This document shows, one piece after another, positions 5,620-9,670 of a stretch of 16,911 nt of DNA; the first letter of the stretch is position 1; every line of letters begins with the position of its first letter. The DNA is from a virus (Duplodnaviria > Heunggongvirae > Uroviricota > Caudoviricetes): the IMG/VR virus record IMGVR_UViG_2872164251_000008; one strand, given 5' to 3'. Below the pieces are notes generated by a model. The model was not told the DNA's origin. It saw nothing but the letters and a program-made list of their open reading frames with translations, and searched no databases. The translations under genes were made by a program, and so were the position numbers.

Positions 5620-6060
5620 TCATTCATCAGCGTCATACATCCAGTTATTGCGGTTAGCAGCCCGTTCTTCCTCTTCACGAAATCCACCTGCGGCACGCTT
5701 GCTTTTTGTTGCCGGATCAAGCCATTTCGTTTTCTGGTTATGACACGCCTGGCACAATGGTTGATGGTTCCATTCGGGCCAGAAGAGAACATCATCACCG
5801 CCATTAATCGGGATAATGTGATCCACCACCACGGCGGGCGTATATATCCCCTTCTCAAGGCATCGCACGCATAACGGGTTTTTACTCAGATACATGGCGC
5901 GGTATTTGTCCCACTGTCTGGAATATCCACGCGCGCGGCGGTGTCCTCGTCTGGCATCCTCTGCACGCCATGCCGCCCGCCTGTGCTCCTCACACTTGCC
6001 GGATTTAACGCGCCTGTTACAGCCTGGTTCTGTGCATCGTCTTAATGGTTGCCACGGCAT
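5620..6060 (-). CDS. phage-associated HNH endonuclease (packaging-associated)
   Basis: ORF track 5620..6060. Cys-rich N-terminus (CTEPGC…CEEH), HNH-like core (…VDHIIPINGG…NHQPLCQACHNQKT). Start overlaps upstream stop (TGATG). Confidence 0.85.
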   Translation of the reverse strand: MPWQPLRRCTEPGCNRRVKSGKCEEHRRAAWRAEDARRGHRRARGYSRQWDKYRAMYLSKNPLCVRCLEKGIYTPAVVVDHIIPINGGDDVLFWPEWNHQPLCQACHNQKTKWLDPATKSKRAAGGFREEEERAANRNNWMYDADE

Positions 6061-6356
6061 CAGTACACCCCCACATCACGGTAAGCCGTCCAGAGTGCGC
6101 CTATCGTCATGGGTACGCGTGTTTTTGCGTTATCCGCGACAATCTGGCGATTTTCATACAGGTGAGCGATAAACATCATGCAGCCAATCTTTATGGCTGG
6201 CGTGAACGCCAGCCCGTCATCAAAGCGCCTGCCTATGTGTATCTGGCACGCCTCAAGCGATGCGGCAATGTATCCGCTGATTAACTGGTCTTCATCGTCG
6301 CCATCGATGCGGCAATGGAGTTTCACTTCTTCCAGGGTGATAAGTTCTTCTGTCAT
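6060..6356 (-). CDS. gp6-like head-tail connector protein
   Basis: ORF track 6060..6356. N-terminal pattern LITLEEVKLHCRIDGDDEDQLISGYIAAS is typical of gp6-like connector/DNA-packaging proteins. Confidence 0.7.
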   Translation of the reverse strand: MTEELITLEEVKLHCRIDGDDEDQLISGYIAASLEACQIHIGRRFDDGLAFTPAIKIGCMMFIAHLYENRQIVADNAKTRVPMTIGALWTAYRDVGVY

Positions 6357-6691
6357 TTTTCCGCGCCCTCACGACAAAGAATTTCAAGGCGTGTCCTGGC
6401 GGCATCCGGCAGCGGCTGCCCGATGATATTCAGTACACGCCCCGCCAGCGGCCCCGTACTGACCTTTATCCGGCTGGTGGCGTTGATGTCCTTCCGGTAC
6501 CGTATCCAGATCCTTACGGTACCAATCGCCAGCTCTGCGCCCGATGAAATGGCCTCCTTGCTGCTGACCATGTTCACGCTTGCCCAGAGTGTGTGACCGT
6601 CCTCCCACGTTTCGAGTATTTCGCCGGTTATATCCCTGGTCTGTTTCAGGGTCTGAATCGTTATCCTGTCACGCAGTCGCCCTATGTTCAT
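6353..6691 (-). CDS. head-closure / head-tail adaptor protein (start moved to MNIGRL…, ATGA overlap with portal stop)
   Basis: ORF track gives 6353..6733. An internal ATG at 6689-6691 overlaps the portal stop (ATGA) and follows a GGGAG Shine-Dalgarno. Family assigned from the pattern …WASV…IRYRKDI…. Confidence 0.65.
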   Translation of the reverse strand: MNIGRLRDRITIQTLKQTRDITGEILETWEDGHTLWASVNMVSSKEAISSGAELAIGTVRIWIRYRKDINATSRIKVSTGPLAGRVLNIIGQPLPDAARTRLEILCREGAEK

Positions 6692-7899
6692 TCCGGTTTT
6701 TCTCCCTCGCTGATTTTTACTTCCTGTTTCCATGCCTGGCTGAACTCATCACCACCATCACGCGGTGACAGCCCTTCACGTTCGCGGGCTTCGTTCGGAC
6801 ACATAACGCCGGATTTTATGCCGCGCTCATAGGTGGCAAAGCGTTCGCCAGGTGTGGCCCGTAACAGGTCCGCGCTGTCAAACTCCACCTGATACCGGAT
6901 ACCAGGTACAGGCGAGGCCACCAGCAAGGCATTTTTTATCTGCTGCTCAAAGTTCGCCAGCCACGGGCGCATCGTCATGGTGAGAAATGCGCGGCTTGCC
7001 TCGCTGAAGTTGCTGTAGGTGCTGTTGCTGTATTCCTGCAAAAAAATCGGCGAGACGTTGAACATTCGGGCGATGTCTTCAATGGTGAAGCGACGGGAGG
7101 CCAGCCATTCGGCATCCTGATTACTCATGCCCAGCTGCTGATAGCTCATCCCCCCTTCAAGGATGGGCGTTTTTCCGGCGTTTCTGGCCCCTTTGTAGCG
7201 TTCCAGTGCGGCTAATGCCTGTTTGCCCTTCACGCCGTCCAGCCATTCGCCTGACGTGATAACCCCTGCCGCCATCATGCCATCACGCATCACGCTCGCG
7301 CCGTGGCGTTGTTGGGCCAGCCCAAGCCCCAGCGATTCGCGGCAGATGGTTACAGGTGAGCGCCCCATAAAACCGTCATCCGTGGAGTAACGAAGGTGGA
7401 GAACCTCCCACGGTAAATAGTTGCGGGTGTTTCCGGTGTAGGCGTCAGTGATGCAGTAGCGCCAGTTATGATCACCTGTCTGCTCCACGTTCACCGACTG
7501 CGGCGGGTAAGGATGTAAAGCCGCCGGAAAACCATCACGCCCCCACTGAATAACCGCATAAGCATTACCACTTAACAGGCAGTGGCGGATCATCATTCGC
7601 TTAAACTGGTAGGGTGTCTGCCACGCGTTCGGGCGCTCGTTGAGGATGTGATCGACCGGATGAGAATCAAGCCATTCGCGGGCCTCCTTCCCCTTCTCAT
7701 TGCGTACCAGGTACAGGTAACACGGCATGGTAGCCACCGCCTCAGAGATGACCGTGACGGCGTTCATGACGGCGGAGAGTGATTCCGCTGTCCCAGATGA
7801 TACGTACTCACCCGCCCCCGTGTTCGATGTGCCGGCCAGCGCCATAAATTCATCAAGCGTCATGCTGCGCTGCTCTTTTTTTCGTCTGAAAGGCCACAT
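6688..7899 (-). CDS. phage portal protein (HK97 family)
   Basis: ORF track 6688..7899 (403 aa). Portal-like conserved blocks (…FKRMMIRHCLLSGNAYAVI…, …NAGKTPILEGGMSYQQLGMSNQDAEWLASRRFTIEDIARMFNVSP…). Confidence 0.88.
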   Translation of the reverse strand: MWPFRRKKEQRSMTLDEFMALAGTSNTGAGEYVSSGTAESLSAVMNAVTVISEAVATMPCYLYLVRNEKGKEAREWLDSHPVDHILNERPNAWQTPYQFKRMMIRHCLLSGNAYAVIQWGRDGFPAALHPYPPQSVNVEQTGDHNWRYCITDAYTGNTRNYLPWEVLHLRYSTDDGFMGRSPVTICRESLGLGLAQQRHGASVMRDGMMAAGVITSGEWLDGVKGKQALAALERYKGARNAGKTPILEGGMSYQQLGMSNQDAEWLASRRFTIEDIARMFNVSPIFLQEYSNSTYSNFSEASRAFLTMTMRPWLANFEQQIKNALLVASPVPGIRYQVEFDSADLLRATPGERFATYERGIKSGVMCPNEAREREGLSPRDGGDEFSQAWKQEVKISEGEKPE

Positions 7900-7900
7900 A

Positions 7901-8473: not shown

Positions 8474-8484
8474 AAAACACTAAA

Positions 8485-8500
8485 GGGGCTTTTTAGCCCC
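8485..8500 (-). terminator. intercistronic stem-loop (GGGGCT-AAAA-AGCCCC on the mRNA) followed by a U-rich tract between the capsid and protease genes; candidate partial terminator
   Basis: Direct reading. Lies between the capsid stop (8513) and protease start. Confidence 0.35.
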
Positions 8501-8512
8501 TTCTGTATGCTG

Positions 8513-9670
8513 TTAATCGTCGTCTTCCGGCAGTTCCAGAATCTTGATCGCGTTCGAATCCACCACGCCACCGCCTAAATATTTTTGCGTGAAAATTTTG
8601 ATGAATCCTGGTTCTGTCAGGTTGTCCGGTCTGGTGCGAACACCTGTTTCGTGATCAACAATGTAGTAACCGCGTTTGAAGTCACCCAGGGCAATAACGT
8701 TATCAGGCATAAACTCCAGATATTCGACCGGAAGGCCCAGCAACGTATCAGGATCACCCGCCTGTAAACGGTCGCGCCAGATATAATCACCGTTCGCGTT
8801 CTTCACCTTCTGAAGTTTTGCCGCCGTCGTGGAGTTAACCACCCAGACCGCGTTTTTGCGGTATTTTTTACGTAATGCAAATTTCAGGTCGATCAGCGGG
8901 TCCGCAGATGTCCACGCCAGAGATTCGGAAGGTTTAATTACCTGCAACGTACCAAAATCACGCTCTTTGTCGTTCTTCTCTGCACGGGGTACGGATAAAA
9001 AACCTTTTGCTTTTTTGTCACCGTCGCCCACAACCAGATCGCTTTCTTCGGTTTCCGTGAAGGTGTCGCCAATCTCACCCGTCAGCCATGAAAGGATGTC
9101 CACATCGGAAAAATCCACGATTTCCTGTGTGGTGCGCGGGTACGCATAGACCGGATACAGCTTAATGCTCACCTCGTTAATCTGCGGGGTGCTGGTCTGT
9201 TCGCGTGCCTTACCCTCTTCACCGTGGTTAACGGTCGCACCGCCAGCGGAAACAAGCTGCTTAAACTCGTTGCTGCTGATTTTCTTCACGGTACAGATGC
9301 GGCGCATAGTGGATTCATCCGCCAGCATTCGCATGATTTCGGTGTTCAGTTCAGGGATAACGGTATAACCACCATCAGCGGGAACGCCTGTACTTAATGC
9401 GCGGGTTTCACCGGTCAGAATGTAGTTGCGTAGTTCTGCGGGGTCAGTGGTCTGGCTGCTTTTACCTGGCTTGCTGCGCTCTTCGTCTGCAATGGCTTCA
9501 AGGCGGGAAATGTCTTTATCGAGGGATTCAGCTTTAGCGCGTAATTCGTCAAATTTTGCGCCCTCAGCATCGTTAAGACTGCGGTTTTCTTTTTCAGCGT
9601 TCTCCAGCATGTCGCGCATCTGATTTTTAATGGCGGTTTTCTGCTGGCGTAATTCGATTATTCTCTGCAT
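8513..9670 (-). CDS. major capsid protein, HK97 fold, with N-terminal coiled-coil (delta/scaffold-like) region
   Basis: ORF track 8513..9670 (385 aa). Charged coiled-coil N-terminus followed by a capsid-like body. AGGA Shine-Dalgarno 7 nt upstream of ATG. Confidence 0.9.
   Translation of the reverse strand: MQRIIELRQQKTAIKNQMRDMLENAEKENRSLNDAEGAKFDELRAKAESLDKDISRLEAIADEERSKPGKSSQTTDPAELRNYILTGETRALSTGVPADGGYTVIPELNTEIMRMLADESTMRRICTVKKISSNEFKQLVSAGGATVNHGEEGKAREQTSTPQINEVSIKLYPVYAYPRTTQEIVDFSDVDILSWLTGEIGDTFTETEESDLVVGDGDKKAKGFLSVPRAEKNDKERDFGTLQVIKPSESLAWTSADPLIDLKFALRKKYRKNAVWVVNSTTAAKLQKVKNANGDYIWRDRLQAGDPDTLLGLPVEYLEFMPDNVIALGDFKRGYYIVDHETGVRTRPDNLTEPGFIKIFTQKYLGGGVVDSNAIKILELPEDDD

Follow-up and report, generated by a model that had tools for sequence, protein, structure and literature searches.

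Identity of the element and its packaging module

The region from 6060 to 9670 of the 16,911-nucleotide stretch of viral DNA analyzed here (the window) is very probably the morphogenesis half of a packaging operon, that of a proteobacterial capsid-forming phage-inducible chromosomal island (cf-PICI) like the prototype EcCIEDL933 (Alqurainy et al., 10.1101/2022.09.08.507074; He et al., 10.1101/2025.02.11.637232), with a capsid-first gene order that holds across the clade. The order is correct but not new, since it is the published, conserved cf-PICI layout: in Proteobacteria it is given as “capsid-protease-portal-head connectors” and then “hnh-terS-terL,” the organization found in the window, and phage and PICI modules are said to differ in organization (Alqurainy et al., bioRxiv 10.1101/2022.09.08.507074). 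Likewise, SatelliteFinder defines the cfPICI by 11 core components and describes their organization as “very conserved” (PMC10085698). The gene order adds nothing beyond the cf-PICI papers, but it still marks the proteobacterial clade reliably.

All genes from 6060 to 9670 are on the minus strand, and profile searches give the order on that strand as MCP, protease, portal, Hc1, Ad1, HNH, a 60-aa gene, TerS, and TerL. The operon begins with the HK97-fold major capsid protein (MCP; 8513..9670; PF05065 1.6e-61, phrog_10 7.2e-88), followed by the prohead serine protease (7901..8473; PF04586 5.9e-47, phrog_80) and the portal protein (6688..7899; PF04860 5.5e-90), which starts 1 nt past the protease stop. 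Head closure protein Hc1 (6353..6733; PF05521 1.7e-23, phrog_25) probably starts at 6691, its start codon sharing an ATGA with the portal stop, and the gp6-like head-tail adaptor Ad1 (6060..6356; PF05135 1e-11, phrog_40 5.3e-35) overlaps the Hc1 stop in the same ATGA manner. Beyond these, still on the minus strand, come the HNH endonuclease, a packaging accessory (5620..6060; PF01844 1.8e-08, phrog_144 8.1e-45), the small terminase TerS (4975..5331; PF05119 1.3e-23, phrog_83), and the large terminase TerL (3390..4991; PF03354, PF20441), which is truncated by an IS1. A reading made earlier from the sequence only had named these eight genes and placed them in one co-oriented block; Pfam and PHROG agree with it on all eight, and no module gene is on the opposing strand. 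What it missed is the ninth gene, between HNH and TerS on the minus strand (5454..5636; full-length match to phrog_3173, 7.5e-37). The EcCIEDL933 module includes a hypothetical gene according to the cf-PICI literature, and the 60-aa gene is probably the counterpart of that element’s “hypothetical gene 1792.”

Most genes of the module meet with their stop and start codons overlapping or almost touching, and the sole non-trivial intergenic gaps are those with the post-capsid hairpin and the cos region. The latter, a gap of 122 nt in front of TerS, holds a putative cos site (5417..5440, minus strand; GGGGTGGGGGGCGTTTTCAGGAC). This motif also closes the linear record LR881103.1 on its right, and on its left the record begins 22 nt before TerS, so that cos would lie near GGGGTGGGGG..GTTTTCAGGAC. 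LR881103.1, which derives from an induced prophage, reads TerS through HNH with the same internal order as the window.

The backbone is that of a PICI, with a tyrosine integrase (15682..16911; Pfam Arm-DNA-bind_3 5.2e-18, Phage_integrase 1.1e-16), an alpA regulator (15089..15277; Phage_AlpA 5e-18), and a D5-type primase-replicase (11367..13115; D5_N 3.1e-14, DUF5906, Pox_D5), all on the minus strand; these three and the capsid, protease, portal, adaptor, connector, HNH, TerS, and TerL genes found by Pfam and PHROG are the 11 cfPICI core components listed for SatelliteFinder (PMC10085698). The island adjoins phoQ, and the chromosome is probably that of a Shigella. Homology to viral contigs extends from about 1486 to 16911, the window end, or about 15.4 kb including a 768-bp IS1, with the int-side attachment site beyond the window; cf-PICIs are about 10–15 kb. 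No tail or holin family matched among the ORFs tested within the window, the sequence to the right of int lying outside it. Int-alpA-primase backbone, nine-gene module order, and the failure to find tail or lysis genes are all as in EcCIEDL933 and other proteobacterial cf-PICIs. At the level of residues, the MCP carries S93-TGVPAD plus D257, K290, D295, E319, and R345, identical in numbering and key residues to the EcCIEDL933 MCP, a likeness that rests on the residues quoted in the preprint; the EDL933 island itself was not located in the E. coli collection. By homology to this prototype, the island would build its own small HK97-fold capsid from its MCP, protease, portal, Hc1, and Ad1, would package its own DNA with HNH, TerS, and TerL at the cos between HNH and TerS, and would take only tails from a helper phage. 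For EcCIEDL933, the cf-PICI literature shows the capsid, packaging, and helper-tail functions experimentally: transfer is helper-dependent, small T=4 capsids are joined to helper tails, and transfer was lost or severely cut when any one module gene was mutated.

Gene order relative to phages and other satellites

In the annotated records of HK97, HK022, and SfIV, the order is HNH, cos, TerS, TerL, portal, protease, MCP, Ad1, Hc1. The families PF05065, PF04586, PF04860, PF05135, and PF05521, together with HNH and terminase, are common to HK97, HK022, and the window, as is the HNH-cos-TerS-TerL adjacency. The departure from HK97 synteny claimed in the sequence-only reading is evident from these records, although its term “inverted” is apt only in the sense of reordered: portal-protease-MCP has become MCP-protease-portal and Ad1-Hc1 has become Hc1-Ad1, two sub-blocks each reversed, while HNH-TerS-TerL retains the phage order. 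A single DNA inversion as the origin of this arrangement is rejected because every gene keeps its strand. In further contrast to HK97 and HK022, no tail module was found in the window, and in the island’s packaged genome the integration and replication genes would come between TerL and the capsid gene.

How widely the order is shared was assessed in 302 fetched loci, with 12 loci coming from a genome-contig scan and the diversity from four viral-contig scans. The capsid gene is first in all 291 loci with MCP identity of at least 50%, and the portal gene is first in all 11 with less than 50%. The module is present in 538 of 5,426 complete E. coli genomes (about 10%), and the nine genes plus int-alpA-primase backbone recur in hundreds of loci, mostly on contigs of about 13–19 kb, with hosts including Escherichia, Shigella, Klebsiella, Citrobacter, Erwinia, Rosenbergiella, Gilliamella, and Pasteurella. 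The cf-PICIs are common and mobile between species. In some Pasteurellaceae relatives, a tail-terminator gene precedes the capsid gene.

As a signature for finding related satellites, a use also proposed in the earlier reading, the order sets this satellite clade apart from phages without exception in the sample (capsid-first in 291 of 291 against 0 of 11), but it is not universal. The Firmicutes cf-PICIs share gene content and lifestyle, yet in one group the operon starts with portal, protease, and capsid and in the other with hnh-terS-terL, and the authors infer independent origins for these groups (Alqurainy et al., 10.1101/2022.09.08.507074). Classical Gram-negative PICIs such as EcCICFT073 and EcCIED1a have no capsid, portal, connectors, or TerL of their own; in SatelliteFinder, the portal, connector, and adaptor of a cfPICI count as forbidden components for a PICI (PMC10085698).

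Post-capsid hairpin and the meaning of the order

A terminator-like hairpin occupies the capsid-protease gap (8482..8503, minus strand; GAAGGGGCU-AAAA-AGCCCCUUU then AGUGUUUUAU), as the earlier reading had it. Its minimum free energy is -18.1 kcal/mol (z = -3.06; as stable a fold in 1 of 200 shuffles), although the U-tract behind it is interrupted in this copy. Terminator-like sites are not enriched overall from 3000 to 11500 (13 versus 10.4 expected), so the hairpin is meaningful only by its position and conservation. It is kept in 98 of 105 distinct relatives whose stems and loops diverge in sequence, which argues that the hairpin itself is under selection; only 64 of the 98 have 4 or more T within 8 nt past the stem.

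In the expression model, transcription would start some 160 nt before the capsid gene, run through a structured leader and then the capsid gene, meet the conserved hairpin, whether as a leaky terminator or a stabilizing element, and go on into the remaining eight genes, most of them overlapping or nearly abutting. The single operon, the position of its promoter, and attenuation at the hairpin in this copy are all predictions. With a capsid-first operon and a leaky hairpin, gene position would roughly track the falling per-particle copy need, and the proposed effect of high capsid and low downstream expression is a plausible prediction. The hairpin is not special to a capsid-first order. A GC-rich hairpin directly follows the capsid gene in HK97 and HK022, strong ones follow it in SfIV and three other portal-first loci, and in HK97 a putative terminator is annotated immediately behind gp5. 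This placement indicates that the hairpin was inherited and, since portal and protease are upstream in HK97, that it does not need the capsid-first order.

These same phage hairpins lend weight to a neutral account, in which the order is a frozen rearrangement from the clade ancestor and the hairpin an ordinary post-capsid element, stabilizer or weak terminator, with no expression logic. We consider this a real possibility, if not one we would lean to. Because Firmicutes cf-PICIs function with other orders, the lifestyle does not depend on putting the capsid gene first, and the arrangement could be a frozen accident; moreover, invariance of the order within the clade means that there is no independent evidence of selection on it. 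On the other hand, gene position would fall in step with per-particle copy need, non-trivial gaps are confined to the hairpin and the cos region, and the hairpin is maintained over stems of quite different sequence.

A structured leader upstream of the capsid gene

The capsid gene is preceded by a structured 5′ leader that has two covarying hairpins and may be new. The first hairpin, P1 (9808..9831, minus strand; GUGGUGCCAG-GACG-CUGGGGCCAC), is matched by covariance model R1, which derives from 78 leaders in other cf-PICI subfamilies and aligns to 9831-9730 of the window (21.7 bits, E about 5e-5). Across those 78 leaders, pairing in P1 is complete (100%) and 3 pairs covary. P2 (9760..9807, minus strand) is long and variable in sequence, and R1 also aligns it in the window; in alignment A2, both sides change in 9 of its 10 base-stem pairs, with 95.4% of cells paired. 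P3 (9671..9706, minus strand; GUCCUGG...CCAGGAC followed by a U6 run), from folds and duplex analysis, contains the AGGA Shine-Dalgarno and stops at the MCP start codon. Duplex analysis also finds the P3 5′ arm complementary to P1 (CCAGGACGC / GCGUCCUGG). The equivalent alternative P1:P3 pairing in other subfamilies is 98.4% paired with only one covarying pair, which probably reflects one change in evolution, so that this pairing is suggestive. Subfamilies B and C have no U-run after the last leader hairpin, whereas the window’s subfamily has one.

Leader-plus-terminator control of phage late operons is familiar from lambda PR’-6S-tR’ and the HK022 put RNA. The window resembles these as a functional analogy only, in that a late or structural operon opens with a structured RNA of about 160 nt and internal terminator-like hairpins are present; it differs in that its leader has no sequence or model match to them. 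Rfam gave no match over the whole window at gathering thresholds and, at permissive E-values over 8400-10400, chance-level matches only (E above 1). Scanning HK022, HK97, SfIV, and the Pasteurella and Gilliamella loci with R1 revealed no leader-like element; since none was found in HK022, HK97, or SfIV, the idea that the leader is common to helper phages, or a put homologue, has no support. EcCIEDL933 particles were purified after alpA over-expression (methods of the cf-PICI authors), and this alpA-driven particle production hints that helper Q may be dispensable.

At the upstream edge of the packaging module, a terminator scan places an intrinsic-terminator-like hairpin with a T-run (9933..9950, minus strand; AGCCGGAGCAATCCGGCT), a second copy of which is at 10294-10315, and homology to other cf-PICIs begins near 9952-9955. 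A conserved motif follows (9907..9923, minus strand; TTTTGTAAATTATTTGT), its core TTGTAA[AT]T recurring in 130 of 218 distinct leaders, mostly 212–252 nt before the MCP ATG. A sigma-70 consensus scan returned no promoter on the minus strand ahead of the capsid gene. A candidate weak promoter can be read by eye (9837..9864, minus strand; TTTACC, 16 nt, TATTCT), but it stays a guess, because a TTTAC-N16-TATnTT-like motif 5 nt before P1 recurs in only 35 of 101 leaders.

Tentatively, and with some doubt, the capsid gene of enterobacterial cf-PICIs might be a self-contained regulatory unit, in which the P1/P2 leader with its SD-sequestering P3, able to pair with P1 instead, and the post-capsid hairpin set the timing and amount of capsid relative to the low-copy portal, connector, and terminase proteins; control would be by attenuation, antitermination, or translational switching. 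Such a unit would supply a functional reason for placing the capsid gene first. The words “promoter” and “terminator” are absent from the text of both cf-PICI preprints (10.1101/2022.09.08.507074; 10.1101/2025.02.11.637232), which therefore do not address how the operon is switched on or its stoichiometry. The post-capsid hairpin and the covarying leader are concrete, mutable targets for work on packaging-operon regulation.

Satellite or prophage remnant, and damage in this copy

That the region is instead a scrambled remnant of an HK97-like prophage that has lost its tail and lysis genes, and not a satellite, is very improbable. All of the head proteins do fall in phage families, this copy bears an IS1 and a split gene, and the phage collection contains four relatives, three of which are named phage records with sizes of about 15–17 kb or larger. 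A complete HK97-like prophage has TerS-TerL-portal-protease-MCP-Ad1-Hc1 plus a tail module; here the order is different, and none of the ORFs tested in the window matched a tail or holin family. Decay of one prophage is also hard to square with recurrence of the same module and backbone across genera, with a prototype that is experimentally a satellite, and with the distance to the nearest true phages in the collection, whose MCP identity is at most 40% (33% for SfIV); HK97 itself had no tblastn match at 1e-3. A one-genome artefact, whether of assembly or of IS-mediated rearrangement, might be suggested by the presence of IS1 but is refuted by the identical order in 291 independent loci and in the linear record from the induced prophage; the IS1 is a simple insertion flanked by a target-site duplication and lies outside the reordered genes.

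The satellite assignment stands, with a difference from EcCIEDL933 in the IS1 at the terL 3′ end and a split phrog_2512 gene. IS1 (2627..3394, minus strand), delimited by blastn against uninterrupted relatives and by insA/insB-like ORFs, is flanked by a 9-bp target duplication (CATGCTCTG) at 2618-2626 and 3395-3403. Compared with the C-termini of five relatives, TerL is cut from 553 to 533 codons, with the last 21 native residues lost; with TerL so truncated, this copy is decaying, and the truncation may prevent helper-dependent transfer.

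Gene order of the packaging module

The window opens with phoQ (1-1461, plus strand), and all genes after it form one co-oriented minus-strand array. In transcription order, with identities taken from Pfam and PHROG searches of the ORFs, the array begins with an integrase (15682-16911) and runs through alpA (15089-15277), several small genes of unknown function, a D5-type primase (11367-13115), and three more small genes to the major capsid protein (MCP, 8513-9670), prohead protease (7901-8473), portal (6688-7899), head-closure Hc1 (6353-6733), adaptor Ad1 (6060-6356), HNH (5620-6060), the 60-aa gene 9 (5454-5636, phrog_3173), TerS (4975-5331), and TerL (3390-4991). 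These results show that the sequence-only reading had the families and their order right, although it overlooked gene 9. No tested ORF matched a tail or holin family in Pfam or PHROG. Read in the sequence, the protease-portal spacing is 1 nt, the portal/Hc1 and Hc1/Ad1 junctions are ATGA overlaps, Ad1/HNH is a TGATG overlap, and HNH/gene 9 and TerS/TerL each overlap by 17 nt. The module has only 2 real gaps: 39 nt separating capsid from protease, containing a hairpin, and 122 nt ahead of TerS, after gene 9.

In their annotated records, HK97, HK022, and SfIV all have the order HNH, cos, TerS-TerL-portal-protease-MCP-Ad1-Hc1-tail. Against these, the claimed departure from HK97 synteny is borne out: 2 sub-blocks run in reversed order, HNH-TerS-TerL keeps its order, and everything lies on a single strand, all genes of 6060-9670 included. 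The capsid-first layout is thus a reordering of genes, which a single DNA inversion cannot yield; that source is ruled out, since the sub-blocks are reversed and yet all genes share one strand. The linear 16.5-kb LR881103.1 ("vB_KppS-Ant", an induced prophage) reads TerS-TerL-...-int-...-primase-MCP-protease-portal-Hc1-Ad1-HNH, and this order would place cos between HNH and TerS. The G-rich GGGGTGGGGG..GTTTTCAGGAC at its right terminus recurs at window 5440-5417 (minus) and is a candidate for the cos cleavage region.

To judge from sequence, the element belongs to an already known family, the capsid-forming PICIs (cf-PICIs). Its int-alpA-primase backbone and nine-gene module match the definition, as does the lack of tail and lysis genes among the tested ORFs, and a size of about 15 kb within the window would fit it too; the MCP residues (S93-TGVPAD, D257, K290, D295, E319, and R345) are exactly those named for the MCP of the prototype, EcCIEDL933, by He et al. 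(bioRxiv 10.1101/2025.02.11.637232). Alqurainy et al. (bioRxiv 10.1101/2022.09.08.507074) give capsid-protease-portal-head connectors followed by hnh-terS-terL as the proteobacterial order and say that the modules of phages and PICIs "have different genetic organisations"; they also describe 2 other layouts for cf-PICIs of Firmicutes, so capsid-first order is not obligatory. SatelliteFinder (PMC10085698) gives cfPICI 11 core components, forbids tail and holin genes, and rates the organisation very conserved. Hence the gene order is already published and the core finding was known before. In the cf-PICI literature, every module gene is required for transfer of the prototype, and mutating hypothetical gene 1792 reduces it severely.

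Distribution of the capsid-first order

From genome and viral contig collections, 314 related loci were fetched and the 8 proteins located by tblastn. At MCP identity of at least 50%, capsid lies ahead of portal, with both genes on one strand, in 291/291 loci, from Escherichia, Shigella, Klebsiella, Citrobacter, Rosenbergiella, Erwinia, Gilliamella, and Pasteurellaceae; below 50%, portal precedes capsid in 11/11. The module is present in 538 of 5426 complete E. coli genomes. Four records in the phage collection exceed 55% MCP identity; the 3 with both genes in full are capsid-first, 2 of them satellite-sized (15-17 kb), and the fourth is a 3.8-kb fragment. True phages there do not exceed 40% MCP identity, and those checked are portal-first.

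LR881103.1, OR544139.1, PQ569648.1, and OR850982.1 are satellite-type sequences with a cf-PICI module that were deposited as phages; in PQ569648.1, a "Klebsiella phage" of 106 kb, the module sits at the end of the record, which is possibly a chimeric assembly. Capsid is not invariably first in the module, since a phrog_37 "tail terminator" gene lies directly 5′ of it in OR544139.1 (Pasteurella "phage" Pmp8, locus L002; 14914-15321) and likewise in other Pasteurellaceae relatives, which include many loci among L235-L314. Three distant relatives, from MAGs of uncultured Bartonella and from a viral contig (L012, L014, and L070; MCP identity ~30%), read portal, MCP, HNH, gap, TerS, TerL: morphogenesis precedes packaging, yet portal comes first, resembling one Firmicutes cf-PICI layout.

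The hairpin between capsid and protease

The hairpin noticed after the capsid gene is present at 8503-8482 (minus) as GAAGGGGCU-AAAA-AGCCCCUUU, followed by AGUGUUUUAU, and outfolds 199 of 200 shuffles (z = -3.06). Among relatives, a perfect GC-rich stem of at least 5 bp occurs in 98 of 105 distinct post-capsid 50-mers, with stems (GGGGC/GCCCC, GGGGGC/GCCCCC, AGCGUUCCUG/CAGGAGCGCU, and GGGUG/CACCC among them) and loops (UUCG, AAAA, GAAA, AAUUAA) that vary, a pattern indicating that it is selected as a structure. At least 4 T follow within 8 nt of the stem in 64 of the 98, and the Pasteurellaceae examples resemble full intrinsic terminators. This family-wide conservation is possibly new material.

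The hairpin is not restricted to capsid-first modules. In HK97, a "putative terminator" is annotated in the gp5-gp6 gap (5192-5213; GGGCGGG-GAAA-CCCGCCC-UUUU), and SfIV and 3 further loci with portal first have strong hairpins in the equivalent position; most likely, the hairpin moved together with the capsid gene. What differs is the genes behind it: protease, portal, connectors, and terminase in the satellite, but only connectors and tail genes in portal-first phages. The proposed effect of high capsid and low downstream expression stays an inference, if a reasonable one, since gene position falls in step with the copies needed per particle. The original observation is confirmed and its interpretation in part supported.

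A structured leader upstream of the capsid gene

Packaging modules of cf-PICIs share homology from about 285 nt 5′ of the capsid ATG onward, directly behind a strong terminator (9950-9933). Between this terminator and the start codon, within 9671-9923 (minus), lie a conserved motif, TTTTGTAAATTATTTGT (9923-9907, minus), a weak promoter-like TTTACC-N16-TATTCT (9864-9837, minus), and then, about 160 nt long, a structured 5′ leader. In an alignment of 78 distinct leaders from 2 enterobacterial subfamilies other than the window's, pairing in hairpin P1 (loop GACG) is 100% and 3 of its pairs have changed on both sides; for the base of the long hairpin P2 the figures are 95% and 9 of 10 pairs; and P3, enclosing the Shine-Dalgarno, pairs at 98% with no covariation. 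These measures all exceed slid controls and beat 500/500 shuffles, except the count of further pair types (reached by 9/500). A covariance model built from the 78 leaders matches window 9831-9730 (21.7 bits, E ~5e-5, filters off), aligning P1 and P2 in a sequence-divergent leader; the model found nothing in HK022 or HK97. Both P1 and P2 are conserved with covariation across 3 enterobacterial cf-PICI subfamilies.

In all 3 subfamilies, the P1 loop and one arm are complementary to the P3 5′ arm (CCAGGACGC/GCGUCCUGG in the window; AGACGUGA/UCACGUCU and GACGGGA/UCCCGUC in the others). This suggests a switch in which P3 sequesters the Shine-Dalgarno or pairs with P1 instead, and, with a single covarying pair in the alternative pairing, it is no more than suggested. 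Rfam gave no match for the leader, the cf-PICI papers searched do not mention it, and the words promoter and terminator are absent from both preprints; the conserved leader RNA is possibly new material. Immediately upstream of the packaging module, in a variable region, the small gene 9970-10272 (phrog_1957) is flanked by 2 copies of a terminator hairpin, AGCCGGAGCAATCCGGCT plus a T-run (10294-10315 and 9933-9950, minus).

State of the island

An IS1 (2627-3394, with a 9-bp target duplication, CATGCTCTG) interrupts terL 21 codons before its end, leaving 533 codons versus 553 in 5 relatives, and this copy may have lost the capacity to package DNA. The closest locus found, L004 from Shigella flexneri SFBU1023 (CP182556.1; 99.4-99.7% identical), is without this IS1 but has lost 90 bp (window 5312-5401), among them the TerS start and part of the HNH-TerS spacer; here the same island was damaged independently, in another strain of Shigella. 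Both copies appear to be islands in decay. At 13720-14128 (minus), two neighbouring ORFs match one family, phrog_2512, the first (13865-14128) its N-terminal half and the second (13720-13920) its C-terminal half, which suggests a gene split in two as a frameshifted pseudogene.
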